A DNA stretch of 64,000 bases from a virus: UHGV virus genome UHGV-0326727; one strand, given 5' to 3'. This document shows, piece after piece, positions 11,838-59,338 of the stretch (the first letter of the stretch is position 1; each line of letters begins with the position of its first letter). The notes below the pieces were generated by a model, which was not told the DNA's origin, made no database searches, and worked only from the letters and a program-made list of their open reading frames with translations. The translations under genes and the position numbers were made by a program.

Positions 11838-17221
<5,384 letters not shown>

Positions 17222-24117: not shown

Positions 24118-25015
24118 ATTTACCTACTGATAAAGGTGCTTCAATCTTTCCTGCATGTTGGTAATTATTAATACCACCTATAAAATCACTTGCAGTGAGA
24201 TGTTTTAAGTCACTTAAAGTGTTAAGTGGGATACCAATCTCAAAAGTTGGTGCATGGAACTCTTCATTGTTCATCAGTTCATAAACCTGTTTCATATGGT
24301 TCTGATAAATCTGAGTATCTCCAAAGACACCTATCAAGTACCGTGGAGTGTATCCAGTCATCTTACAAAGAACTTCCAGAATAAAACCGTAAGATGCAAT
24401 ATTAAATGGAAGTCCTAAAAAGGTGTCTACTGAACGCTGATACCATTGTAAGTCAACTTCACCCTCGTTAGTAATATAAATCTGAAACAGAACATGACAA
24501 GGTGCTAGAGCCATTGAGTTTGCTGCAATATCTGCTGCATTCCAAGAATTAACAAGCATGTAACGGTCTGTAATATCACCCTTCATCTTCGTTACTAAGG
24601 TCTCTAACTGGTCTACAACGCAACCATTATGACCTTCAAAGTTTCTCCACTGAACCCCGTAGATTCTTCCACCTGCATCTTCTAACCAATCTTGTTCAGA
24701 AGAATAATTAGAGCTTAACCAGCGTTTAAAATCATCTGACCAGATAGTCCAACGTTCTCCGTCATTTTCACCCCAAGTGCGGAAACGGAGTTCACCAAGC
24801 TTATTCTCTCCGTTCAGGAACCATAAAGCTTCCCCAATAACTTGCCGTGTAAACACCTGTTTAGATGTTAAGAGTGGGAAACCAGTTCGCATATCAAAAC
24901 GAAACTGAGGTGGAGCAAATGCAGAGATAACATCTCCAGTTCGTGTAGTACGCAGTTCACCAACGGATAGAACATGGTTCAGGATATTTTTGTAACTTGA
25001 GTCTGCTTGTGACAT
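24116..25015 (-). CDS. thyA: Thymidylate synthase (ThyA family)
   Basis: 299 aa; catalytic-Cys motif ALAPCH and ThyA-like core (dUMP-binding arginines); adjacent to DHFR. Confidence 0.82.
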   Translation of the reverse strand: MSQADSSYKNILNHVLSVGELRTTRTGDVISAFAPPQFRFDMRTGFPLLTSKQVFTRQVIGEALWFLNGENKLGELRFRTWGENDGERWTIWSDDFKRWLSSNYSSEQDWLEDAGGRIYGVQWRNFEGHNGCVVDQLETLVTKMKGDITDRYMLVNSWNAADIAANSMALAPCHVLFQIYITNEGEVDLQWYQRSVDTFLGLPFNIASYGFILEVLCKMTGYTPRYLIGVFGDTQIYQNHMKQVYELMNNEEFHAPTFEIGIPLNTLSDLKHLTASDFIGGINNYQHAGKIEAPLSVGK

Positions 25016-26709: not shown

Positions 26710-27039
26710 TTAATCTGCCAGCCTTAAATTAAAGTTAACACCAAATTTTTCACATACTTCCAACATAAACTCAAGGGAGACATTACCAGTGAGATTGATT
26801 ATGTTGGATACACGAGCCTGAGAGATACCACAAATTTTAGCAACTTGCTCTTGAGAAAGACCTCTGGATTTAATCTCTCTCTTAAAACGATGTGCAACGA
26901 AATCTCTCATTTCGTCTACATCCATTGGACAAATATAACTCTCCATTTCAGCCTCTCTGTCAGCCTCCCAATCATCTTGTGGAGCATAAGGGTCAAAAAC
27001 CTCATTCATCTTTCTTCCTCCGTTTGCGTGGAGTGTCAA
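26710..27039 (-). CDS. HTH (XRE-like) DNA-binding protein
   Basis: 109 aa; helix-turn-helix signature LSQEQVAKICGISQARVSNI in C-terminal half, acidic N-terminus. Confidence 0.55.
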   Translation of the reverse strand: MTLHANGGRKMNEVFDPYAPQDDWEADREAEMESYICPMDVDEMRDFVAHRFKREIKSRGLSQEQVAKICGISQARVSNIINLTGNVSLEFMLEVCEKFGVNFNLRLAD

Positions 27040-27599: not shown

Positions 27600-27642
27600 A
27601 ATGACCTCAAAGTTATATTAAATTTTGTATTACATTGAGTAT

Positions 27643-27672
27643 AAAAATAAGCTATAACACCTGACTTGTCAA
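27643..27672 (-). promoter_or_regulatory. Sigma70-like promoter on - strand upstream of 27216..27599
   Basis: On - strand: TTGACA (27672-27667), 16-17 nt spacer, TTATTT/TATTTT -10; about 40 nt upstream of ATG at 27599. Confidence 0.4.
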
Positions 27673-27708
27673 CAGATTTTATAGCTTATTTGGCAGATTT
27701 TTTATAAG

Positions 27709-27960
27709 GCTACTGCCATCCTTCCATACATTACCTTACCTTACCTCACCTGACCTGACCTGACCCTACCTAACATTACCGTGCCACACCTCACTTAAAA
27801 ACCCTCTTAAAAGACTCTTAAGTGATGTAAGTCTCATTTTAATGTAGCTGAGACTAACTACCCATACCTGACCGAACATTACTAGGCCTTACCAGACACT
27901 ACAGAACAGGACAGCACCGCACCTTATTAAAAGACCCTGTTTAAAGACCTTTTAAAAAGG
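27709..27960. repeat. Repeat array A: CA-rich (+ strand) modular repeats with elements X, Y, Z
   Basis: X 27789-27827, Y 27828-27868, Z 27921-27960; each recurs in array B (29.1-29.4 kb) with different order. Confidence 0.8.
27731..27780. repeat. Tandem pentamer tract (NNACC)x10
   Basis: TTACC TTACC TTACC TCACC TGACC TGACC TGACC CTACC TAACA TTACC read directly. Confidence 0.85.
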
Positions 27961-27976
27961 AGCCTCCGAAGAGGCT
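27948..27976 (-). terminator. Rho-independent terminator on - strand after 27988..28428
   Basis: Hairpin AGCCTC-CGAA-GAGGCT (27961-27976); on the - strand followed by CC then TTTTT. Confidence 0.6.
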
Positions 27977-27987
27977 ACCTAGTCAAC

Positions 27988-28428
27988 TTAGAAAGGTTTT
28001 CTACGTTGCTTGTTAATGTTAGCTTTCATAGCAGCTAAGTGGTTTTGCTGTTCAATCAGTCGTGAGCGTTCTTGATGGCTAAGTTCCATAGTGTTCACAT
28101 TCTCAATAGCTTGAGTGGCTTGCTTTAAAGCTCGACCAATCTTACCAGACATTTTACGTTTTGCAATAGTTGCTTGATGTTTAGGTTCAACCACACGATA
28201 ACCAACACCCATTGAAGCAACCAGATAAATCTTCTCTTCTTTAAGAAGCTTCTCAATAAACTTCTCAAGTCGGTTTAGACGTGTAAGTGCATAAGCCTTC
28301 ATTTCATCTTCGTACTTAACAATGTCGCCTTGATAAGTTGGCTTCATAATACCTAAGAAGGTGTCCATCTCAGAATGTGATACAGTGTCACCGTAACTAA
28401 ACTTTGCTGCTAATGCTTTTGTATTCAT
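27988..28428 (-). CDS. Hypothetical protein (146 aa), second gene of repeat-flanked cassette
   Basis: ORF; start overlaps stop region of upstream gene; basic C-terminus. Confidence 0.45.
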   Translation of the reverse strand: MNTKALAAKFSYGDTVSHSEMDTFLGIMKPTYQGDIVKYEDEMKAYALTRLNRLEKFIEKLLKEEKIYLVASMGVGYRVVEPKHQATIAKRKMSGKIGRALKQATQAIENVNTMELSHQERSRLIEQQNHLAAMKANINKQRRKPF

Positions 28429-28430
28429 AA

Positions 28431-29036
<606 letters not shown>

Positions 29037-29110
29037 TTAGTTGATTGTTAAGTTGTTTGTAAAGAACCCTCAACAGAAGACTCTTTAGAAACTTGGTAGA
29101 TTTTTAACGT

Positions 29111-29382
29111 GGCTACTACCATCCACCCATACCGTGCCACACCACACCGGACTATACCATGCCCAACCCTACTACACCAGACCTTATTAAAAAACCCTCT
29201 TAAAGACCTTTTAAAAAGGTAAGTCTCATTTTAATGTAGCTGAGACTAACTACCCATACCTTACCGCACCGGACATTACCGGACCGCACATCACCGCACC
29301 AAACCAAACATCACATTACCTGACCTCACCGCGCCTTACCATACCTCACTTAAAAACCCCTCTTAAAGATTCTTAAGTGATG
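29111..29382. repeat. Repeat array B: CA-rich modular repeats with elements Z', Y, X'
   Basis: Z' 29181-29219, Y 29220-29260 (identical 41-mer to 27828-27868), X' 29344-29382; strongly G-poor on + strand. Confidence 0.8.
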
Positions 29383-29446
29383 CTGGTGAGTACCCGTTGG
29401 TTTATGCTGCTCAGTATACTCACCAAATTTTCTATGTCAACAACTT

Positions 29447-31800: not shown

Positions 31801-32015
31801 AGTAAACTCTCAATATTTACACGCTCACCTTTTAAGTAGCCTGTCTTATCTTTTGCGATTTTACCTCCAGCAATAAAGATATCTACTCTACGTAGAACTT
31901 CAGGGTTTACCTTCAAATTCCTACAGCTACTGCAAAGAACAATAAACATCCCTTCAATCTCTTTTTGAGAATAACCTGCACATTGCAACTGAACTTCAAT
32001 CTCTGAAAGTGTCAT
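31797..32015 (-). CDS. Small protein, paralog A of duplicated family (72 aa)
   Basis: Alignable over full length with 31382..31609. Confidence 0.45.
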   Translation of the reverse strand: MTLSEIEVQLQCAGYSQKEIEGMFIVLCSSCRNLKVNPEVLRRVDIFIAGGKIAKDKTGYLKGERVNIESLL

Positions 32016-32066
32016 ATGTCCTCCTATACAAGATATTGTATAAGGTACTCTTCCATGAGCACCTTG

Positions 32067-32630
32067 TCAAGATAGTTTTGCGAACTCTCCGTGTAGTTTT
32101 ATAGCAGCTTCACAGTAAGCTTTATGGGCTTCTTCTGGTGTGTCAAACATACCAAGATGATAGTTTTTACCCTGTAAACGAATCATTGCTCTAAACCTTT
32201 TACTTATTTTCTGTACACCTTTTGGCAATCCAGATAGGGACTTTCTTGACCGATTACAAGAGTTTTGTGAGGCTGTACAAACCCTCAAATTCAAGTATCT
32301 ATTATCCCAACCATCTCCATTCTTATGGTCAACCTGTAAGGTTTTATCAGGTAGATACCCATCCATGTATAGTATTACTAAACGGTTAGCTTGGTAGCCT
32401 TTACCATCAAGCAACAACTGAACAGACTTGTGACCATCTGTATTTATCCTATAATTACCTGCCTTTTTACCTCCAAAACGAGAGTTGAAGTTCCTATTAC
32501 CTCGTGATATTGGCTCTCTAAACTTCCAAGTAAAGACCCCTGTTTCGGGGTCGTAGTCCAGTAGTTCCTTAAGACGAATTTCTGTAATCATTTCAATACC
32601 ATCAATGCACTTCCAACCAGCTCTTACCAA
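32067..32630 (-). CDS. HNH homing endonuclease with AP2-type DNA-binding domain
   Basis: 187 aa; HNH core VDHKNGDGWDNRYLNLRVCTASQN; C-terminal AP2-like GVQKISKRFRAMIRLQGKNYHLGMFDTPEEAHKAY. Confidence 0.75.
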   Translation of the reverse strand: MVRAGWKCIDGIEMITEIRLKELLDYDPETGVFTWKFREPISRGNRNFNSRFGGKKAGNYRINTDGHKSVQLLLDGKGYQANRLVILYMDGYLPDKTLQVDHKNGDGWDNRYLNLRVCTASQNSCNRSRKSLSGLPKGVQKISKRFRAMIRLQGKNYHLGMFDTPEEAHKAYCEAAIKLHGEFAKLS

Positions 32631-35331
32631 CCTTACCAGTGCCAGTTACAAGCGTCTCTCTCTTCAAACCCAAATTCTGAGATGCCTGACCATACATCCA
32701 GTCAGTTATAGCTTTAACCTCTTGAGTCATACTTTCTGGGCATTCCCAACTGTTTTCATCGTGGTATGCCAGCAAAAGTCTAGCACCGATTGCTGGTTTT
32801 CGTCCATTTAATTTTGTCAACCCTTCTTCACATGCCCTTCTACAAGCAAGGTTAATTGCCTCATTTTGAATCTGAGCCTCTGAACCCATCAAAAGATAGT
32901 TCAACAGTTTGTGTGGAGATTTACACCACAACCAAGCTCCAGCAACCCTTACAAAACCCCCTTTAGAGATTGCAGCAGTCTTACCAAACACCTCTTCAAG
33001 TGCCTTTTTAGTCGCTTTGTAGTCAGCTTCCAAGTCATCTAGCAGCTTCTTAATCTTAGGCAAACGGATAAAGTAAGTCTGTTTAGTCAGTGCACCTTCC
33101 TGAGTAGTTGCAGCTTTAATTGTCTTAGCAAACTTCTCATCACCTGCACCAAACAGTAGTGCATAGATGCCATTCTTAGCTTTCTTACGACCCTTGCTAA
33201 TCTCATGAAGAAGGTTCTCATCCTGAGTAGCTCGACAAGTCAAGATATCCTGCTCATCATTCAAGCTAAAGTAAATACTATTCAGTGTGTGTGCATCAGT
33301 CCCTGAATAGACAACGTAAAGGTCATTCTCAGAGTCATAACGCAGATACTTGTCAACTTCTGGGTTAAGGTACTCATCAAAATGTTTGCAGTAATAGCGT
33401 CCGTCTTCTTGACGAATAAATTCAATCTCTTCTTTACCTTGCGTTACCGCTTTGGTGAAGTCTTTGTCACCCATGAAGTTACAAAGAAGAACTAGCTGGG
33501 CTGAGTTCATGTCTACAGAGACAACGTTAGTACCTTCTTCACAAATCCACACTGCCCTCATTGGTTCCCCATAGACAGCAGCACCAGACGGTACGTTTAC
33601 AATACCATATTGTGTCATACGTCCAGTTGAAGTACCAAATACCATTGCACCAGCACTAAGGCGACCATCTGGACGAATCTGGTTCAACCAACCTTTTTCA
33701 TCATCCTTTGAGTTCTCAATAGTTCTGCGTCTGTGCATCAAAGTATAGTACTTAGCAATCTTCTGTCCAAGCTCACCTTCAATCGTATCATAAGATGATT
33801 CAGTAAGCTTTGGTGAAGTCCTAATCAGACAAGGTTCAAGTAAATCTGTGTACTTCTTAACAGACCAGTTATGCTCAATGTACTGGACACCTTCATGTTC
33901 AACATAACTCAAACCACACCGTTCAACCATCTCCTGCCACTTAGGATGCTTGGTAATCATCTTTTTGTTGTCTTTGAAACGACAAACCTTAACAGGACGA
34001 CCATCTGAGTCTTTCTTGTAGTTCCAGTCATCTGGAATCCAACCAACTGATTTCAAGTAGTCTTTAACAACTGCTACCTGAGTCATACGAGAAACTTCGA
34101 ACTCAATTGGTGTATATGGTGCATCAATCAAACCTGTGTAGCGACTTGACTCAAGCTCAAAGTGGTTAACAACATGGCTGTTATAGTACTTCACAGTCTT
34201 AACTGTTTTTACTGGCTTCCAGTCTTTGCACTTCTTACCAATCTTTGCATTCAACTCATTGCAAATTGCACGAGCATCCTTCATTGCTACAAAGCCTTCA
34301 TTGTACTCTTCACCAGTTACAGAGTTGGTTGGTGTATAGCAATTCCGCTTTTCAATGTTAAAAATCTTTGTAGTTGGCTTACCAAATGGCTTGATTTCAT
34401 ATGTCTGCATTTCACCATTACGTACCTGCTGACGATACTTTGTCTTAGGGTACTTGGTAATTCTCTTCAGTCCATCTGCATGACCGAATGCTTCAACATA
34501 CTCATTCCAAGCTTTTGCAAATTCTTCTCCAGTGACTTTACCTTTGGTCTTAATAGTTGGTGGAAGGTGTGGTTCAACTTCTGAAGCAAGCTCATTAGTC
34601 AACTTGTCAAGTTCCTTTGCATGGAACTCCATAAGCTCTTTATCAGCTTTCCAACCATTGATAGCCTGTTGACTCATCCAGAAAGATGTTTCTTTAGCTC
34701 GCATATAGGTTTCATAAGTATCTATGCCACACTTCTTCAGCTTGAGATATTCATTATCCAGTGCACGTTTAGTTTTGGCGTTAATACGGATATCTTCTAC
34801 AACACGAGTGAAGATTTCTGCATTCCACACACCCCAATGTTCAATCTCTGGTTTACGTACACCAACACGAGCACCCCATGCTGCCAAGCCATGAGCACCT
34901 TTATAACCTTTTGGAGTTGGTCTATCCATCCACTGAACACGAGACTGGATAAGAGAATCCTGAAAGAAATTACTCCACGGCTTACACTTTGGATTATCAA
35001 AGTTCCACAAATCAGGTGCAATGTGATTGAAAACCCACCAGTCATACCCCAGACCATTATGGATGCAGAGTCGTTTTGCCTTTAACGCAAACTCAATGCC
35101 TTCACGTAAGCCACCCTTAATGTACTTGGTATACTTGTGACCGAGGATAGGTTCATCTGTAAAGACCCATACAGGCGGCTCTTCATCGTCAGATTTATAG
35201 TCTGCGAAAGCCATTACGTGCACTTTAGTGAACTCAAGGAGTAAACCATCAGTTTCTGTATCACCAACTAAATGTAAGTTTTTAAAATCTACGTTTTCCA
35301 TTTTTACTCCCTCTAAAATCATTAACCTCAT
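32602..35331 (-). CDS. DNA polymerase, family A, with 3'-5' exonuclease domain
   Basis: 909 aa; Exo I motif GDTETDG; motif A VSVDMNSAQLVLL; motif B RKKAKNGIYALLFGAG; motif C LAYHDE. Confidence 0.9.
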   Translation of the reverse strand: MRLMILEGVKMENVDFKNLHLVGDTETDGLLLEFTKVHVMAFADYKSDDEEPPVWVFTDEPILGHKYTKYIKGGLREGIEFALKAKRLCIHNGLGYDWWVFNHIAPDLWNFDNPKCKPWSNFFQDSLIQSRVQWMDRPTPKGYKGAHGLAAWGARVGVRKPEIEHWGVWNAEIFTRVVEDIRINAKTKRALDNEYLKLKKCGIDTYETYMRAKETSFWMSQQAINGWKADKELMEFHAKELDKLTNELASEVEPHLPPTIKTKGKVTGEEFAKAWNEYVEAFGHADGLKRITKYPKTKYRQQVRNGEMQTYEIKPFGKPTTKIFNIEKRNCYTPTNSVTGEEYNEGFVAMKDARAICNELNAKIGKKCKDWKPVKTVKTVKYYNSHVVNHFELESSRYTGLIDAPYTPIEFEVSRMTQVAVVKDYLKSVGWIPDDWNYKKDSDGRPVKVCRFKDNKKMITKHPKWQEMVERCGLSYVEHEGVQYIEHNWSVKKYTDLLEPCLIRTSPKLTESSYDTIEGELGQKIAKYYTLMHRRRTIENSKDDEKGWLNQIRPDGRLSAGAMVFGTSTGRMTQYGIVNVPSGAAVYGEPMRAVWICEEGTNVVSVDMNSAQLVLLCNFMGDKDFTKAVTQGKEEIEFIRQEDGRYYCKHFDEYLNPEVDKYLRYDSENDLYVVYSGTDAHTLNSIYFSLNDEQDILTCRATQDENLLHEISKGRKKAKNGIYALLFGAGDEKFAKTIKAATTQEGALTKQTYFIRLPKIKKLLDDLEADYKATKKALEEVFGKTAAISKGGFVRVAGAWLWCKSPHKLLNYLLMGSEAQIQNEAINLACRRACEEGLTKLNGRKPAIGARLLLAYHDENSWECPESMTQEVKAITDWMYGQASQNLGLKRETLVTGTGKVGKSWLEVH

Positions 35332-35361
35332 ACATTACTGCAAAAAATTATAAAAAGCAAG

Positions 35362-35391
35362 TTGACAATGTGCTTGACAAGGTGTTAATCT
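35362..35391 (+). promoter_or_regulatory. Sigma70-like promoter region with two TTGACA boxes (second inside CTTGACAAGGTG 12-mer)
   Basis: TTGACA 35362-35367 and 35374-35379; TAATCT -10-like at 35386-35391; divergent region between DNA pol (-) and 35559 (+). Confidence 0.4.
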
Positions 35392-35473
35392 TTGCGAAGT
35401 GGGTTTTTACTTAAAAGGTTACTTAACAGTTTAACTATACAGATACTTTAAAACTCTTAAAAGATTATTTAAT

Positions 35474-35513
35474 AGCTTTTAAAAAGCTTTAAAGTATAAC
35501 GTATAGAATACGT
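35474..35513. promoter_or_regulatory. Two near-palindromic operator-like sites in divergent intergenic region
   Basis: AGCTTTTAAAAAGCT (35474-35488) and ACGTAT-AGA-ATACGT (35499-35513). Confidence 0.35.
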
Positions 35514-35558
35514 TAAGATAAAAGATTAAAACTTAATAGTTACTTAAAAGAGGCTTAC

Positions 35559-35981
35559 ATGCAGAAAATGTTTGTTCACCCAGACATAGCTGACTTTGTT
35601 AGAGCTTTGCAGAAGTTGGAAGAACTTGACATTGCTGCTCAACGGGAATATGCTCACCATCACAGGAGAATGGTTGATATACAACATGAAATAGAGTTGT
35701 CTGAAAACTATGAAGATGACTTAAAATGCTCTGTGTTTGAGCATATGAAAGATGTTGCTACAGCGAGACGTAAAGCTAAAGACACAGTTGCTTTACTAGA
35801 TTCTCTTAAAAAGAGGTTGCAAAGTGGTACAGACCTGTGTAATCTAGCGTCACTGATTAACGATGTTGAAACTTCTTGGGATAGACATTACTATCCACGT
35901 TCTGAAAAGACACTTGACTTTTCTTCATCAGAAAACTTAAAATGTTCTAGAAAGAAACTTAACCAACTGAGAGAGAAATAA
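35559..35981 (+). CDS. Hypothetical protein (140 aa)
   Basis: First gene of + strand early block. Confidence 0.4.
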   Translation: MQKMFVHPDIADFVRALQKLEELDIAAQREYAHHHRRMVDIQHEIELSENYEDDLKCSVFEHMKDVATARRKAKDTVALLDSLKKRLQSGTDLCNLASLINDVETSWDRHYYPRSEKTLDFSSSENLKCSRKKLNQLREK

Positions 35982-35982
35982 T

Positions 35983-36795
35983 ATGAATACTACTGTAGAC
36001 CAGATGCTTGAAGAAAAAGGTATTGACGAAGCATTCTTAATCAATGCCGTAGAAAGCATGGCTATGATTCTTCGTGGAAACAACTACACAGAACAGTTTA
36101 TGCCTGCAAGCTATAACTTGCCTAAAGACAAGTCTGATAACGGTGCTTTTGCAGAACAGGTTAATATGATGCTGTGTGATAAAACACTTGCTTTAGCATC
36201 TATCGTTGTAGGTGTTGATGCTCTTGCAGAGTTCATTTTCTATGAGATGCAGAAAAATGACTATATTGCCATGACCTCTGAAGAAAAAGACTCGCTACTG
36301 CTCTTAGGTTATGATGAGCTAGTTGACCTGTTAATTTCGTCAACAAGTGCTGTTATGGCTGCTCTTGAGAAGCGAATGGAAGAGAAGCTGTCACGATATG
36401 AAAAACTTGATTGGGGTGTAGAAGAGTTAAACCCACGAATCAAAGAGATTATCCAGCAAACTAAAGACTCTTTAGCAGAAGCTGTGAAAGATGATTCTGT
36501 AGCTGATGTAGAACCACTACAGGTGAAGGTTGCTCTGATGATTCCAGCTATCTCTACAATGATGAATATCGTTGCACTAATCCAACTTTCTCAGATGTTG
36601 GGTGTAACCATTGAGTTCGTTGAGGAGATGACTGGTGGTGTCAGTATGCAAGCAATCAATGATGTTTTGGTAAACATTGGCGCTTCAATCATTGAAGAGA
36701 AGCTACGTATCAACTTCGGTGATGATTTTGTGAAGCAAATCTCAGCTATTGCTGAAAAAGAGCACTCACAAATTACTAGTGACCAACTGCACTAA
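35983..36795 (+). CDS. Hypothetical protein (270 aa)
   Basis: ORF; followed by terminator. Confidence 0.4.
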   Translation: MNTTVDQMLEEKGIDEAFLINAVESMAMILRGNNYTEQFMPASYNLPKDKSDNGAFAEQVNMMLCDKTLALASIVVGVDALAEFIFYEMQKNDYIAMTSEEKDSLLLLGYDELVDLLISSTSAVMAALEKRMEEKLSRYEKLDWGVEELNPRIKEIIQQTKDSLAEAVKDDSVADVEPLQVKVALMIPAISTMMNIVALIQLSQMLGVTIEFVEEMTGGVSMQAINDVLVNIGASIIEEKLRINFGDDFVKQISAIAEKEHSQITSDQLH

Positions 36796-50646: not shown

Positions 50647-50648
50647 AA

Positions 50649-50697
50649 CTTGACAAGGTGGTGTGAGTCTTGATAGGCTTACATCACCTTTTTTTAT
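50649..50697 (+). terminator. Terminator hairpin (8-bp stem, 19-nt loop, T8) whose 5' arm is the recurring CTTGACAAGGTG 12-mer
   Basis: AGGTGGTG/CATCACCT stem then TTTTTTTT; 12-mer identical to 35373-35384. Confidence 0.5.
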
Positions 50698-50801
50698 TGG
50701 ATGTTAGATATGGCAGAGAGTATTATTGGGTTGTTCATAGGTTCTGTCTTACTAGGGTTCTTTTTAGGACTCTCTTATTGTGAATTGAGAGATAAGTTAA
50801 A

Positions 50802-54535: not shown

Positions 54536-56317
54536 ATGACTAAATCACTTTATGCAGTACCAGCAGGTTTAAACGCAGATGCTTACAAATCTGGTCACAT
54601 TTACCAGTATCCTAGTGCAACAGAATACTTGATGTTCAACCTGACACCACGTAGTGATAAATGGTTTAACAGTCCTTTAGCAATTGACGGTGTAGTGGCT
54701 TTTGGTATTCAACGTTTTATTAAAGACTACTTAATAGACCACTGGAACGCCACCTTCTTCGAACGTGACAAAGAAGAAGCAATTGACGAAATCTTAGAAG
54801 TCATGAACGGTGTTCTGGGTAAAGATGCTATTGGTCGTGAACATTGGGAAGCACTTCACGACTTAGGTTATCTACCAGTTGAAGTATACGCTGTAGAAGA
54901 AGGCACAGTTGTTCCTATGCGTGTACCAATGATTGTCTTCCAGAACACTGTTTCAGGTTTCCATTGGGTAGCGGGGTATCTGGAAGATGCTTTCTCTGCT
55001 GAGATTTGGAAGGCTTGTACCATTGCAACTATTGCATTGCACTACAAACGTATCTGTAAGAAGTGGTCTGACCTTACTTGTGATAACGACTTACATTTGC
55101 CTTATCAGTGTCATGACTTTGCTATGCGTGGTATGTCCGGCTTTACTGATGACGCATTTAACGCTGTAGGACACTTAACCAGCTTTAAAGGAACTGATAG
55201 CTTCCCTGCTGTATATACAGCTAAACGCATCTATGGACAGTCCTACCCAATCTCTGATATTGGTAGTTCTGTACCAGCCACTGAACACTCTGTAATGTGT
55301 GCAAACATTGCTTGGGAAGGTGGTAATGAGTTGATTGAAGAAGAAAGACGCTTTAAAGGTGAGTTACAAACTTTCCGTCGTTTCTTAACAGAAACTTACC
55401 CAACTGGTATTGCAAGTGTTGTTTCAGACACTTATAATTTCTGGAGAACTGTATCAGAAATCTTACCAGCACTTCGTAAAGAGATTATGGAACGTGACGG
55501 CAAACTGGTAATTCGTCCTGACTCTGGTGACCCTGTACATATTGTCACAGGTTATAAAGCAATCCACTTAGAGTGTGCTAAAAAGGCTTATTACGAACAC
55601 CTAAGCAAGCTGGAAGCCAGTGACACAATGCTGAATGCTGTTCTGAACATGAAGCTTGAAAACATCAACTATGGTATTGCTGGATGGCTATTGTCAGAAG
55701 GCTACGAAATGGTTGTTGACAGAGAAGACTTTGAAGTTGCTGATACAGTGCTGTTGAAAAATGCTTATATGGTTGGCTCTGCAAACGTTGTAACACGTCC
55801 TGTAGCAGAGATTGATGGGGCTATTAAGACCCTGTATAACATCTTTGGAGGGACTATCAACTCTAAAGGTTTTAAGGTACTGGATGAGCACATTGGCCTT
55901 ATTTATGGTGACTCTATCACGTTGGAACGTGCAAACGAAATCCTGAAACGTTTGTATGAAATGGGTTTTGCAAGCTCTAACGTAGTGTTTGGTGTAGGTT
56001 CTTATACTTACCAGTACATGACTCGTGACACCTTTGCATTTGCTGTCAAAGCAACTCTTGCAAGTATTGGTGGTAAAGAGATTATGCTTGCAAAAGACCC
56101 TAAAACAGATAGCGGTGTTAAGAAGTCTGCTTTTGGTGGTGTAGCACCCATGTGGGATGGTGATAAGCTGAAAGCTGTAGATGGCTATGGATTCCAGAGC
56201 TTTGCAGATGTGCTTGAACATCCAGCTTGTGCTTTACGTTTAGTCTTTAGTGACTCTGAGCAGTTCGGTTACACAACTCTTGGTGATATTCGAAATAATA
56301 TTGACAAGCAACTTTAA
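54536..56317 (+). CDS. nadV: Nicotinamide phosphoribosyltransferase-like protein (NAMPT/NadV family)
   Basis: 593 aa; N-terminal NAMPT-type motif DAYKSGHIYQYP and overall type II PRTase length. Confidence 0.75.
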   Translation: MTKSLYAVPAGLNADAYKSGHIYQYPSATEYLMFNLTPRSDKWFNSPLAIDGVVAFGIQRFIKDYLIDHWNATFFERDKEEAIDEILEVMNGVLGKDAIGREHWEALHDLGYLPVEVYAVEEGTVVPMRVPMIVFQNTVSGFHWVAGYLEDAFSAEIWKACTIATIALHYKRICKKWSDLTCDNDLHLPYQCHDFAMRGMSGFTDDAFNAVGHLTSFKGTDSFPAVYTAKRIYGQSYPISDIGSSVPATEHSVMCANIAWEGGNELIEEERRFKGELQTFRRFLTETYPTGIASVVSDTYNFWRTVSEILPALRKEIMERDGKLVIRPDSGDPVHIVTGYKAIHLECAKKAYYEHLSKLEASDTMLNAVLNMKLENINYGIAGWLLSEGYEMVVDREDFEVADTVLLKNAYMVGSANVVTRPVAEIDGAIKTLYNIFGGTINSKGFKVLDEHIGLIYGDSITLERANEILKRLYEMGFASSNVVFGVGSYTYQYMTRDTFAFAVKATLASIGGKEIMLAKDPKTDSGVKKSAFGGVAPMWDGDKLKAVDGYGFQSFADVLEHPACALRLVFSDSEQFGYTTLGDIRNNIDKQL

Positions 56318-56328
56318 AAGTATATGAT
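56301..56328 (+). promoter_or_regulatory. Sigma70-like promoter TTGACA-N16-TATGAT overlapping 3' end of NAMPT-like gene
   Basis: TTGACA 56301-56306, TATGAT 56323-56328. Confidence 0.4.
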
Positions 56329-56331
56329 AAG

Positions 56332-56354
56332 AGGCTCCTACGGGAGCCTTTTTA
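56332..56354 (+). terminator. Rho-independent terminator
   Basis: AGGCTCC-TACG-GGAGCCT followed by TTTTT. Confidence 0.65.
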
Positions 56355-56370
56355 ATTTCTGGAGAAGATT

Positions 56371-56892: not shown

Positions 56893-59259
56893 ATGCGCAT
56901 GGTAAATGACCACGCAGAAGTGATTAAGAGTTCAACTTCTTTAGAGACGTCTCAAGCACAGATTACAATGACACCTGAAATGTTCAGCCTTTTGAGTTCT
57001 GGTGTATATACCTTTAAAGAAAGGGCAGTTATTCGTGAACTGTCATGTAACGCAGTAGATGCTCAGAAAGAAGCTGGAAAAGAGAACATCCCGTTCCATG
57101 TGCATTTACCTACTCGTTTTGAGCCTTACTTTGAAGTTCGTGATTTTGGAACTGGATTGACTCATGATAAAGTTATGAGTTTGTATCTAAATTACGGGGC
57201 TTCTACGAAGAATGACTCTAATGACTACATTGGTGCAATGGGTATCGGCTCAAAATCCCCATTTGCAATTGCTCAGTCATTCACAGTATCTAGCTATGTT
57301 GATGGTGTTGTCAATAAGTACTCTGTTTACCTTGAGAATGGTATCCCTCAAGTAACTAAGCTGACCACTAACCCAACAAAAGAACCTAATGGTTTAGCTG
57401 TACGTGTAGCAGTTGCTGACCACCGTATTTCAAAGTTCTTTGAAGAAGCTGGTCACGTATACTCATACTTTGCTGTAAAACCAGAAAGTAATATCGAGTA
57501 CGACGATATATTAGCAGACATGAATGTCATTGCCCGTGAAGAAGGTGTTTATGATGCCATGATTCATAAGCAAAGCTGGCGCTCTAGTGGTAACAGGACA
57601 GAGTTTAATGTGGTGATGGGTAACATCGCCTACCCTGTTAACATGGAAGCACTACTTGGTGATGATTTCTTCAAAGTCTTGCCAGAGTTTTTCCGTAGGA
57701 GCGTAGACCTTGTAAACATCTATATGCCTATTGGTTCAGTTGCTATTGCAGCTTCTCGTGAAGCATTGCAGATGAATGATACAACAAAAAATGTTATCAT
57801 TGAGGCTACTAAAAAGATAACTGAAGCAATTACAAAGGATGTTATCAAGAAAGTTAATAGCCAACCTACACTCATGGATGCTGCACAGGCTTATGCTGAG
57901 TTACGTTTAAACTCACGAGAGATGTTTAATGCTGTGTGTCCAAAACTAGAGTGGGGAGGCGTTAAGCTTGATTCTTTGGAAGAAGAATTGCTAAACATTC
58001 GTCGTGGAATTATCTACGCAGAAGACGGCTCAGTTATCTATGAACGTGACGGCAAAGGTAATATTAAGGTTGATAGGAACGGGAACAACATCCCTAAAGT
58101 AGATTATCTTTATAATCCAGTTGCTTATGTTAAGTTTAACTCTTTAGAGAGTAAGATTCGTGCAACAGCGCTTTCCTACACTCAAGAGGCAAGTATGTTC
58201 AATATCTTTGGCGCAATGCGTAAAAGTCAAATTGAGCAGTTTTTGTTTGTTATAAATGACCGTCGCAATAAAAATGGTACTGAGAAGACTGTAGGACGCA
58301 ATCAGATTCTGCGTGGTGCATGTCGAGACTATGCCAGTGAATCCAGTCTGTTTCACAGATACAATGGTATTGTCTTTGTATTCTCGACTGAAAAAGAGCT
58401 AGATGATTTAATCAATCTTCACAAACTTGATAAAAGCTTGTTAAAGATTGTGAAGATGTCTGATAAGGAACATCATTATCAGCGTAAAGAAGCTGTAAGA
58501 GGTGTTGTAAAACTTTGGAAAGCTGTTCCAGCAGAAGGTGTAGCTTCATACAAAGAGGTGTCAGAAGACTTAGATACGATTGAAGAGCCTCAGCTTTATA
58601 TTAAGGCAGTAGGCGACACAGTTGATGGCGAATGTTTTTGCTCATCTCCAGAAGATGTAGCTAAGTCAGTTGCCAATGTCATTGGAAAGACAGTATATGT
58701 TTTCCGAAAAGCAAATTGGAAAAAGATACCAGAAGACTGGATTGAAGTAGATGAGAAGCTCTTGAACGACAGCTTAACTGATGTTCACTGGATTAATCAT
58801 AATAGGTATATGACACGTATCTATATGAATGGTGTCCTTGACCTTACAAGCAGTTGGATTATTGCCAGAAACTTTACGTTCAATAACAGGAAGATTTCTC
58901 GTGGCTATTGCTATTCACGAGACACAAACAAAACTATCTTCTTAGAAGGTAATGAAGATGCTGTTGAGGCAATGTTTGGTAAAATCCAATACGTTGCTGC
59001 ACCGTTTGCATACACTTACACTGTTAGTCGGTTGCAAACTTTGAAAGAATGCCTTGACAATGACACAAAGTTGTACAAGAAAATTAAGAAAGCTGGTGAC
59101 CGTATGGTTATTAAGGTGACAAACTATCTTTTAAAAAGAAAACAAGAAAACTTCTTGCTTTCTCATTTAGATTGGAATAAAGTGTCACCCATCGAAGTAA
59201 GTAAGTTCTTAGGCTTTGATGTGAAGTGTGTTCCAGAAGGGACTACAATTTACGATTAA
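56893..59259 (+). CDS. rIIA: rIIA-like protein with N-terminal GHKL (histidine-kinase/HSP90-like) ATPase fold
   Basis: 788 aa; Bergerat-fold motifs N-box ELSCNAVDA, G1 RDFGTGL, G2 GAMGIGSKS; size and pairing with downstream gene resemble T4 rIIA/rIIB. Confidence 0.55.
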   Translation: MRMVNDHAEVIKSSTSLETSQAQITMTPEMFSLLSSGVYTFKERAVIRELSCNAVDAQKEAGKENIPFHVHLPTRFEPYFEVRDFGTGLTHDKVMSLYLNYGASTKNDSNDYIGAMGIGSKSPFAIAQSFTVSSYVDGVVNKYSVYLENGIPQVTKLTTNPTKEPNGLAVRVAVADHRISKFFEEAGHVYSYFAVKPESNIEYDDILADMNVIAREEGVYDAMIHKQSWRSSGNRTEFNVVMGNIAYPVNMEALLGDDFFKVLPEFFRRSVDLVNIYMPIGSVAIAASREALQMNDTTKNVIIEATKKITEAITKDVIKKVNSQPTLMDAAQAYAELRLNSREMFNAVCPKLEWGGVKLDSLEEELLNIRRGIIYAEDGSVIYERDGKGNIKVDRNGNNIPKVDYLYNPVAYVKFNSLESKIRATALSYTQEASMFNIFGAMRKSQIEQFLFVINDRRNKNGTEKTVGRNQILRGACRDYASESSLFHRYNGIVFVFSTEKELDDLINLHKLDKSLLKIVKMSDKEHHYQRKEAVRGVVKLWKAVPAEGVASYKEVSEDLDTIEEPQLYIKAVGDTVDGECFCSSPEDVAKSVANVIGKTVYVFRKANWKKIPEDWIEVDEKLLNDSLTDVHWINHNRYMTRIYMNGVLDLTSSWIIARNFTFNNRKISRGYCYSRDTNKTIFLEGNEDAVEAMFGKIQYVAAPFAYTYTVSRLQTLKECLDNDTKLYKKIKKAGDRMVIKVTNYLLKRKQENFLLSHLDWNKVSPIEVSKFLGFDVKCVPEGTTIYD

Positions 59260-59264
59260 AGTGT

Positions 59265-59294
59265 TTGACAAGGGGCTTTGAAGCCCCTTAGAAT
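59265..59294 (+). promoter_or_regulatory. Sigma70-like promoter TTGACA-N18-TAGAAT with a 6-bp hairpin inside the spacer
   Basis: TTGACA 59265-59270; hairpin GGGGCT-TTGA-AGCCCC 59272-59287; TAGAAT 59289-59294. Confidence 0.45.
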
Positions 59295-59338
59295 ATCCTT
59301 ACAAAATGATTTATTAACTGACAAGAGAGAGTAATAAG

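Follow-up and report, generated by a model that had tools for sequence, protein, structure and literature searches.

Phage T4 early promoters have been described as 'uber' promoters, in which an upstream (UP) element, a -35 box, a TGn and a -10 box are combined and extra conserved positions are of unknown meaning, and the same description has been applied to T7 A1 and lambda PL (PMC2988021). T4-type phages also host promoter early stem-loops (PeSLs), composite cassettes between genes in which a sigma70-like promoter is joined to a terminator stem-loop, and which are associated with insertions or deletions of accessory genes (PMC2839356, PMC4122927). The early promoter of Bacillus phage SPO1 that is found in Pspac/Phyper reads gcAAAAAGTTG-TTGACT-ttatct-ACAAGGTG-tgg-CATAAT (PMC4945081). 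Here we compare these systems with a divergent control region in the virus genome UHGV-0326727, a Felixounavirus (Felix O1-like myovirus) of which a stretch of 64,000 nucleotides, the window, was analysed. The region lies between the DNA polymerase gene gp96 and gene gp97 (the gene numbers are those of Felix O1), and it carries two TTGACA boxes, the second of which opens the 11-mer TTGACAAGGTG. We think it probable that the region consists of two back-to-back promoters, from which the sigma70 RNA polymerase of the host transcribes when infection begins.

The authors of the Felix O1 genome paper assumed that genes 96 and 97 are separated by divergent early promoters, but the paper found no recognisable promoter in the region and described temporal regulation as unknown (PMC3185647). 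The reverse transcription PCR (RT-PCR) timing in that work covers open reading frames (ORFs) 96 and 97, with ORFs 96, 101 and 105 detected no later than 5 min post infection, and the DNA polymerase and primase/helicase that flank the gap are both of the T7 type (PMC3185647). In record KR014248, promoters are annotated at the equivalents of 35362-35391 (+ strand) and 35320-35352 (- strand). The present analysis offers concrete, testable promoter assignments in both directions, and brings the four TTGACAAGGTG sites of the genome under a single framework. As Felixounaviruses are common tools of Salmonella typing and biocontrol, knowledge of their early control region is of practical use, e.g. for engineering reporter phages.

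A 1.5-kb piece around the gap is 99.7% identical to Escherichia phage SME50 and is matched by 256 phage records. The initial annotation of this DNA described a gap of 227 bp. Its limits are probably 35302-35558 instead, because the polymerase gene probably starts at ATG 35301, behind a GAGGGAG ribosome-binding site (35307-35313); an equivalent start is annotated in phages phiSUSP1 and Mordin. The gap contains no ORF of 20 or more amino acids. Downstream of gp97 lie gp98, a deoxynucleoside monophosphate (dNMP) kinase and the primase/helicase gene. The promoter features of the gap are as follows.

35302-35558, no strand: intergenic control region that separates the divergent genes gp96 (DNA polymerase, - strand, ATG 35301) and gp97 (+ strand, ATG 35559), from ORFs and sequence
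35332-35337, - strand: candidate -10 box TAATGT of the polymerase promoter, about 30 nt upstream of the polymerase ATG
35347-35352, - strand: perfect TATAAT, in Felixounavirus only (GAAACT in phiSUSP1, TGAAGA in Mordin)
35350-35361, + strand: A-tract ATAAAAAGCAAG, resembling a proximal UP element; AAAAAG invariant in three genera
35355-35360, - strand: candidate -35 box TTGCTT of the polymerase promoter, back-to-back with box 1 and 1 bp apart from it
35362-35367, + strand: box 1, TTGACA, predicted -35 box of the gp97 operon promoter P97; invariant in 19 variants, 18 nt from TAATCT
35368-35373, + strand: linker between box 1 and box 2, a hot spot of variation by comparison of variants
35374-35384, + strand: box 2 and its extension, the 11-mer TTGACAAGGTG, in the 3' part of the P97 spacer; invariant in three genera
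35383-35391, + strand: putative extended -10 of P97, TGt and TAATCT
35396-35407, + strand: predicted start region GAAGTGGGTTTT, of which CGAAGTGGG is invariant in three genera

The two TTGACA boxes listed by the initial annotation are indeed present (35362-35367 and 35374-35379), and the first of them has the setting of a sigma70-type promoter. Box 1 is a perfect consensus -35 hexamer, the TAATCT behind TGt stands 18 nt downstream, i.e. a TAnnnT within the range of 16-18 nt, and the pair is intergenic and oriented towards a gene. Transcription would start at about 35398, judging from geometry only, and P97 would drive the operon of gp97, gp98, the dNMP kinase and the primase/helicase through an AU-rich leader of 160 nt. 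We infer the use of these promoters, their start sites and any function of box 2 or of the leader motifs from the sequence.

Both boxes, AGGTG, TGn, the -10 and CGAAGTGGG show no change in 19 variants from three genera (Felixounavirus, Suspvirus and Mooglevirus); in the extended -10, which reads TGgTAGTCT or TGtTAGTCT in Mooglevirus, the TG, T1, A2 and T6 are kept throughout. The most variable positions of the region lie between the boxes, where positions 35370-35372 differ in 1, 7 and 12 of 15 distinct Felixounavirus variants. The core (35350-35407) is 85-91% identical to the other genera, and the whole gap 85% to Suspvirus and 79-80% to Mooglevirus, against baselines of 73% and 68% for the aligned 34 kb and of 77% and 69% for the gp97 gene. 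More distant relatives have a single TTGACA at this site, followed by TACATT or TAGGCT 17-18 nt on. A tract of A5-6 G(T)TG also precedes TTGACA at other promoters of the genome and in unrelated phages. Box 2 is ruled out as a -35 box at this locus, which we call site A, because no TAnnnT is found 16-18 nt downstream of it.

P97 is similar to the 'uber' promoters in its A-tract, perfect TTGACA, TGn and TAnnnT, and in its position before early replication genes. Unlike these, its spacer holds a second perfect -35 hexamer and AGGTG, and its -10 (TAATCT) is weak. A further difference from T4 is that phages of the Felix O1 type have no known equivalents of Alt, AsiA or MotA (PMC3185647).

In the leftward direction, TTGCTT-17-TAATGT is the best candidate for the promoter that would serve the DNA polymerase gene, because three genera agree in its spacing and key bases. 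The putative -35 box lies within the block AAAAAGCAAGTTGACAA, which is invariant in the 19 variants, the putative -10 is TAATGT, TAGGGT or TAGTGT (T1, A2 and T6 kept), and the spacing is the same in all genera. The TATAAT at 35352-35347, which is without a -35 box, may be an alternative -10. The TGTCAA repeats on the - strand are placed like those of a Pho box, but this reading was dropped, as they recur every 12 bp instead of every 11 bp and have a different half-site.

The second TTGACA of site A belongs to a word that is found elsewhere in the genome. The initial annotation reported the 12-mer CTTGACAAGGTG at 35373-35384 and 50649-50660; both copies are there, and a third exact copy, at 32060-32071 on the - strand, had been missed. 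The conserved unit is the 11-mer TTGACAAGGTG (TTGACA and AGGTG), the base preceding TTGACA being variable in comparisons with Suspvirus phage phiSUSP1 and Mooglevirus phage Mordin. There are four copies per genome, sites A to D, all of them intergenic and co-oriented with genes, and those of sites A, B and C are exact at orthologous positions in all three genera. Recurrence alone is weak evidence and not unusual, as the window has 25 different 12-mers with three or more copies. The location of the copies is more telling: intergenic DNA makes up 3.6% of the window, and every copy is intergenic for 3 of the 25, namely two overlapping terminator words and this 12-mer, whose three copies in the window are all co-oriented with transcription. 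A literature search for the 11-mer itself yielded nothing relevant. Sites B and C and the two rII promoters, which share the TTGACA box, are as follows.

50650-50660, + strand: site B, the 11-mer directly 3' of the nrdD stop codon; TTGACA as putative -35 box, with TGaTAGGCT 18 nt downstream (-10 at 50674-50679)
50655-50697, + strand: nrdD intrinsic terminator from a terminator scan, AAGGTGGTGT...ACATCACCTT and a T run, enclosing the putative promoter of site B
32060-32070, - strand: site C, the 11-mer downstream of the DNA polymerase gene; TTGACA as putative -35 box, with TACCTT 17 nt downstream (-10 at 32047-32042)
56301-56328, + strand: predicted rIIA promoter TTGACA-16-TATGAT, followed by a GGCTCC...GGAGCC terminator hairpin
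59265-59294, + strand: predicted rIIB promoter TTGACAAGGGG...-18-TAGAAT, with the hairpin GGGGCTTTGAAGCCCC within the spacer

Sites B and C look like ordinary sigma70-type promoters with a perfect -35 and a weak -10. The 12-mer would then be no independent word, and its TTGACA would be the -35 box of single promoters at 50650 and 32070. At sites A and D the 11-mer would fill the 3' end of the spacer instead, its final TG supplying or abutting the extended -10.

Site B is kept in D4, AYO145A, phiSUSP1 and Mordin. The 12-mer had been described here as the 5' arm of the nrdD terminator hairpin, which is correct for its last six bases (AAGGTG); the first six lie outside the stem, which spans 50655-50690, has 16 pairs and is followed by TTTTTTT. 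The site is better read as a composite of terminator and putative promoter, with the 12-mer at 50649 as an embedded -35 box rather than a terminator arm alone. A transcript that starts within the 3' arm would escape termination, because it would lack the 5' arm of the hairpin. In this respect the genome resembles the T4-type phages: at site B (50647-50700) a stop codon is followed by TTGACA, a stem-loop over the -35 and -10 boxes (50655-50697), a T run and the next gene, and the rIIA and rIIB promoters carry stem-loops. Site A differs from PeSLs, as it has no G+C-rich stem-loop with a T run and lies in a conserved core, not in a hyperplastic region.

Site C lies ahead of a gene starting at 32015, with TACCTT about 30 nt before the start codon. 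The distant Erwinia phage phiEa104 has TTGACA-17-TATCTT at this position and AYO145A has TTGACAGGGTG, while the AGGTG extension is not conserved in Kolesnikvirus. A homing endonuclease gene with HNH and AP2 domains (32067-32630, - strand) is inserted between the polymerase stop codon and the site C promoter, and its TGA stop falls inside the TTGACA of site C. This gene is present in phiSUSP1, where an endonuclease gene is also inserted just before site B, and is absent from AYO145A, D4 and Mordin. In some genomes, sites B and C are thus the exact insertion points of HNH endonuclease genes, and there are no such insertions at site A.

Site D, a fourth exact TTGACAAGGTG, is found beyond the window, in the genome's other gap between divergent genes (Felix O1 genes 40/41). 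There the layout is TTGACAaaggacTTGACAAGGTG, the doubled arrangement that is seen at site A as TTGACAatgtgcTTGACAAGGTG. In the two doubled sites of the genome other than site A, box 1 is 17 nt from TAGGCT and from TAACTT, respectively. Two other roles for the word were rejected: CTTGACAAG as a palindromic operator, since sites B and C do not keep its leading C, and the Shine-Dalgarno-like AAGGTG as a translation signal, since a conserved start codon is absent downstream at the three sites.

A third doubled promoter, TTGACAacgccccTTGACA, is found in AYO145A at 13453. The early-gene region of the same phage (8800-14600), a part of the genome that the window does not include, contains the promoter TTTACAAGGGGC...GCCCC (-10 TAAAGT) and the leader ATCAACGGGGAGGGA...TCCCCACTAAATAAAGTCCTAAACTGGAGATTCAAAAATG, repeated 7-9 times, and these words are the most intergenic-enriched of its genome.

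The suggestion that the genome has a shared promoter vocabulary gains support from a wider set of sites. Intergenic, co-oriented TTGACA boxes with a TAnnnT 16-18 nt downstream are found at 27672, 29440 and 32070 on the - strand, and at 35362, 40197, 50650, 56301 and 59265; about 15 further TTGACA-N16-18-TAnnnT sites in the rest of the genome bring the total to more than 20. Several of these have the extension TTGACAAG(G), and the TTGACAAG copies at 56301 and 59265, which the initial annotation had noted, belong to the rIIA and rIIB promoters. The rIIB site is annotated as a promoter in KR014248 (2298-2327). The combinations of promoter and stem-loop at rIIA (56301-56360) and rIIB (59265-59300) resemble PeSL cassettes. 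Since most of the features seen are host-type promoter vocabulary, the promoter-class half of the earlier interpretation holds. Other recurring words, TTAAAAGGTCTT (four copies) and AACTATACAGAT (three copies), were set aside as coincidences of terminator loops or coding sequence.

The doubled layout is not confined to relatives of Felix O1. A scan of IMG/VR for TTGACA-N6-TTGACAAGGTG found 85 loci, about half of which are sites A and D of Ounavirinae genomes. There are also matches in three unrelated groups, one of them related to gut Clostridium phages and another to T4-like aquatic myoviruses. In these the 11-mer abuts TATGAT, TACATT or TATCGT, so that box 1 is 17 nt from the -10, and bases that the pattern leaves free also agree, i.e. 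the AA after box 1, the C before box 2 and an A6GTTG upstream. With a spacing of N5, there are 28 loci from 14 lineages, of which 13 have a single base between GGTG and a TAnnnT. The full pattern, TTGACA-N5/6-TTGACAAGGTG-(0-1 nt)-TAnnnT, is found in the same fraction of N5 lineages (13/14) and in 6/19 N6 lineages. Scrambled controls gave 8 loci for the inner box and 3 for the extension, with 1-2 promoter-like lineages each. The layout is present in more than 15 unrelated phage lineages, roughly 7-10-fold above the scrambled controls.

There is one doubled promoter per phage contig among 3-9 ordinary ones. Often it occupies the opposite strand, at 26-53 nt before the stop codon of a late gene that is convergent to it. 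In the T4-like aquatic contigs and those related to Clostridium phages, these late genes are gp4-, gp5- or PAAR-like. Among these loci (L123-L165, L037, L057, L069 and L102), many copies have a CTATGT motif just after the -10. In contigs L133, L155 and L156, boxes 1 and 2 form direct repeats of the 11-mer with a length of 11-13 bp. No common downstream gene or RNA was found behind the doubled promoters of other phages: the genes vary, and neither a tRNA nor an Rfam family was hit. The full pattern also occurs in 14 bacterial genome contigs, mostly from Clostridia, a number that may be no more than expected given the many promoters in that collection.

The SPO1 early promoter has the A5GTTG upstream tract, a -35 box and ACAAGGTG in the spacer (PMC4945081). 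It differs from site A in that it lacks the inner TTG and has its ACAAGGTG at a distance from the -10 that is larger by 3 nt. This match was confirmed as sequence, and it is not a statistical result.

Several observations weigh against two plain host promoters as a full account of the region. The -10 of P97 matches the consensus at 3 of 6 positions, and a consensus scan missed the promoter. No transcription start data, RNA-seq included, were found in the searchable literature for any Ounavirinae or Felixounavirus phage. A plain promoter model does not explain why the spacer should hold another perfect TTGACA, nor does it account for an AGGTG that is identical at four sites with two geometries. 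The extension also drifts at site D, to AGCTG in SUSP2 and ACGTG in Mooglevirus, with both TTGACA boxes and the spacing kept. Finally, a leader of 160 nt that is about 80% conserved and the most AT-rich of the window exceeds the needs of a simple 5' untranslated region (UTR). The doubled -35 layout is unexplained by current promoter models, and the inner box, if functional, would be an additional element in the way very strong bacterial promoters are described.

A possible but doubtful explanation for the second box, raised as an alternative by the initial annotation, is that TTGACAAGGTG is the binding site of a trans-acting factor, either encoded by the phage or acting as a second RNA polymerase contact, which switches a few early promoters off or on. 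One candidate would be the HTH_3/XRE regulator at 26710-27036, as a conserved HTH regulator is encoded by all three genera. On this equally doubtful proposal, the factor would bind within the spacer at sites A and D and over the -35 at sites B and C. The identical 11-mer in two promoter geometries of one genome fits such a factor, as does an invariant 11-mer next to a variable linker. So do the direct repeats in the three contigs above and the restriction to just 1-2 tandem modules per genome amid many ordinary promoters, both here and in other phages. However, no protein has been linked to the site, and the motif spans phages of very different hosts (enterobacteria, aquatic bacteria and clostridia) as well as clostridial genomes, which argues against one phage-specific factor. 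The loss of the extension at site D in other genera and at site C in Kolesnikvirus also speaks against it. The Sigma70_r4 match of the regulator (20.6 bits) is below the cut-off of 24.1, and a role as a mimic of sigma region 4 was rejected on this ground; the closest solved relatives are ordinary XRE/HipB-type proteins.

It is rather unlikely that TTGACAAGGTG, placed against the -10, one helical turn past the real -35, is a distinct promoter element that has not been described before. Such an element would single out one or two early promoters in each genome of many unrelated phages, among them Felix O1-like, T4-like aquatic and clostridial phages and, in part, SPO1. RNA polymerase or sigma region 4 might make a second contact with it, or a conserved factor might mediate its effect, and in this phage it might couple the first transcription to the opening of the adjacent AT-rich block for replication.

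This block is the leader of gp97. Its features are as follows.

35404-35558, + strand: AT-rich conserved leader (5' UTR) of gp97, about 160 nt
35407-35417, 35419-35429 (TTACTTAACAG) and 35540-35550, + strand: three copies of the repeat TTACTTAAAAG
35456-35463, + strand: one of three copies of CTTAAAAG in the leader; TAAAAGATTA at 35458 and 35519
35474-35488, + strand: palindrome AGCTTTTAAAAAGCT, from sequence
35497-35515, + strand: dyad TAACGTAT-AGA-ATACGTTA, hairpin or operator, containing a -10-like TAGAAT
35548-35553, + strand: gp97 ribosome-binding site AAGAGG, ahead of ATG 35559; AGAGG invariant

At 35404-35563 the G+C content is 0.175-0.22, a minimum for the 64 kb whether pieces of 80, 120 or 160 bp are compared, and the leader is 80-82% identical across genera. 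It contains 10 repeated 8-mers, a modest excess over a mean of 2.6 in dinucleotide shuffles (p ~0.005). The last copy of TTACTTAAAAG overlaps the gp97 ribosome-binding site, and similar CT(T)AAAAG(G) motifs follow tandem promoters in AYO145A at 24198 and 13453. Ribosome loading would be among the likeliest functions of the leader, given the similarity of the CTTAAAAG(G) motifs to Shine-Dalgarno sequences; another would be regulation by a small hairpin or an operator at 35497-35515.

A strong promoter, or a pair of promoters, followed by the most AT-rich DNA is also what the T7 primary origin (tandem promoters and an AT-rich region) and T4 oriF and oriG (a promoter and an unwinding element) look like, and the gap adjoins T7-type replication genes. 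Promoter and AT-rich block might be a transcription-activated replication origin, in which the P97 transcript primes or opens 35404-35558 for the T7-like polymerase and primase-helicase whose genes flank it. We consider this unlikely. The composition of the block is in line with an origin, as compositional evidence only, and so are direct repeats beyond composition and the location between the polymerase and primase/helicase genes (PMC3185647). The gap is also the switch point of both gene direction and GC skew, and a local minimum of cumulative GC skew, although skew is confounded with transcription direction. In T4-like contigs the module often points into the 3' end of a late gene that converges on it, a setting in which it would hardly serve the expression of a protein; in T4, the oriE primer transcript is antisense to gene 5. 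On the other hand, the consensus scan found no DnaA, IHF or other origin-type boxes, and the occurrence of the same AT-rich, Shine-Dalgarno-like motifs in two other leaders is a better fit to a 5' UTR than to three origins. Here, unlike in T7 and T4, the AT-rich block is also a 5' UTR that ends in the ribosome-binding site of gp97.

The scan for host regulators (LexA, CRP, FNR, PhoB, ArcA, IHF, DnaA and Fis; 35290-35580) gave nothing convincing. The weak matches are a LexA-like CAGT-N8-ACAG with a key half-site mismatch and a Fis-like site with one mismatch. The former, CAGTTTAACTATACAG at 35427-35442, resembles the LexA box (CTGT-N8-ACAG) except for this one key mismatch, and its AACTATACAG is invariant in three genera.

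Both near-palindromes that the initial annotation listed in the leader are present (AGCTTTTAAAAAGCT at 35474-35488 and ACGTAT-AGA-ATACGT at 35499-35513). That they are hairpins of a regulatory RNA with a defined structure (an attenuator, a 5' UTR that binds a protein, or a small RNA, for instance) seems improbable to us. One point in favour is the dyad at 35497-35515, where two of eight pairs change on both sides (A-T to T-A in four variants, C-G to T-A in two), 97% of cells are paired as opposed to 21-51% in slid controls, and the covariation score was reached by 0 of 500 shuffles. Dyad symmetry would fit an RNA hairpin and a dimer operator alike, and for a DNA operator that binds a dimer the same covariation is expected. 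The palindrome at 35474-35488 tolerates a U-G change; compensatory changes are not seen in it, and AYO145A, phiSUSP1 and Sf13 are polymorphic at its centre. The conservation of the leader, about 80%, would suit a functional RNA, but its fold z-score of -1.56 is not significant and no Rfam 15 covariance model matches 35000-36000 at the gathering score, the sole hit in the window being a tRNA at 55-127. A 27-nt inverted repeat at 35443-35497 was discarded, as it is unsupported by substitutions in other genera.

Chance matches in AT-rich DNA, to which the many recurring 12-mers of the window lend some plausibility, are hardly credible for the 11-mer, whose copies are intergenic, co-oriented, orthologous in three genera and part of a layout enriched 7-10-fold in IMG/VR. 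For CTTTTAAAAAG, which is low-complexity DNA, chance is an adequate explanation. The motifs of the initial annotation were all found at the positions it gave, with a single offset of 1 nt, which concerns this word (27949, not 27948). Its copies are in the gap, at 27949 and 29208, and, as a fourth, in coding DNA at 59128. The proposed link from the gap to the repeat arrays Z and Z' through this word is not supported. The two Z copies belong to one repeat unit and count as one occurrence; they read CTTTTTAAAAG on the transcribed (-) strand, which is not the same word; and the gap copy is polymorphic, being CTTTTAAGAAG in AYO145A and phiSUSP1 and shifted in Sf13.

Two minor observations concern the surroundings. 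The gp98 gene (35983-36795, + strand), directly behind gp97, is annotated as 'minor tail protein' (PHROG 4251) despite its place in an early replication operon, and the name may be inherited rather than tested. Z and Z' (27600-27990 and 29034-29446, transcribed from the - strand) are noncoding, about 400 bp each, lie downstream of TTGACA promoters and flank a two-gene cassette (27988-29033). They hold arrays of the 5-nt units GGTNN/AGGTN, for which Tandem Repeats Finder (TRF) reports a period of 5 with 10.8 copies at 27727-27780 and a period of 15 at 29261-29300, as well as a hairpin, AGTCTCAGCTACATTAAAATGAGACT. Formation of a G-quadruplex or R-loop is conceivable at Z and Z', because the RNA-like strand is G-rich. 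Both elements are present in Suspvirus and absent from the Mooglevirus Mordin.

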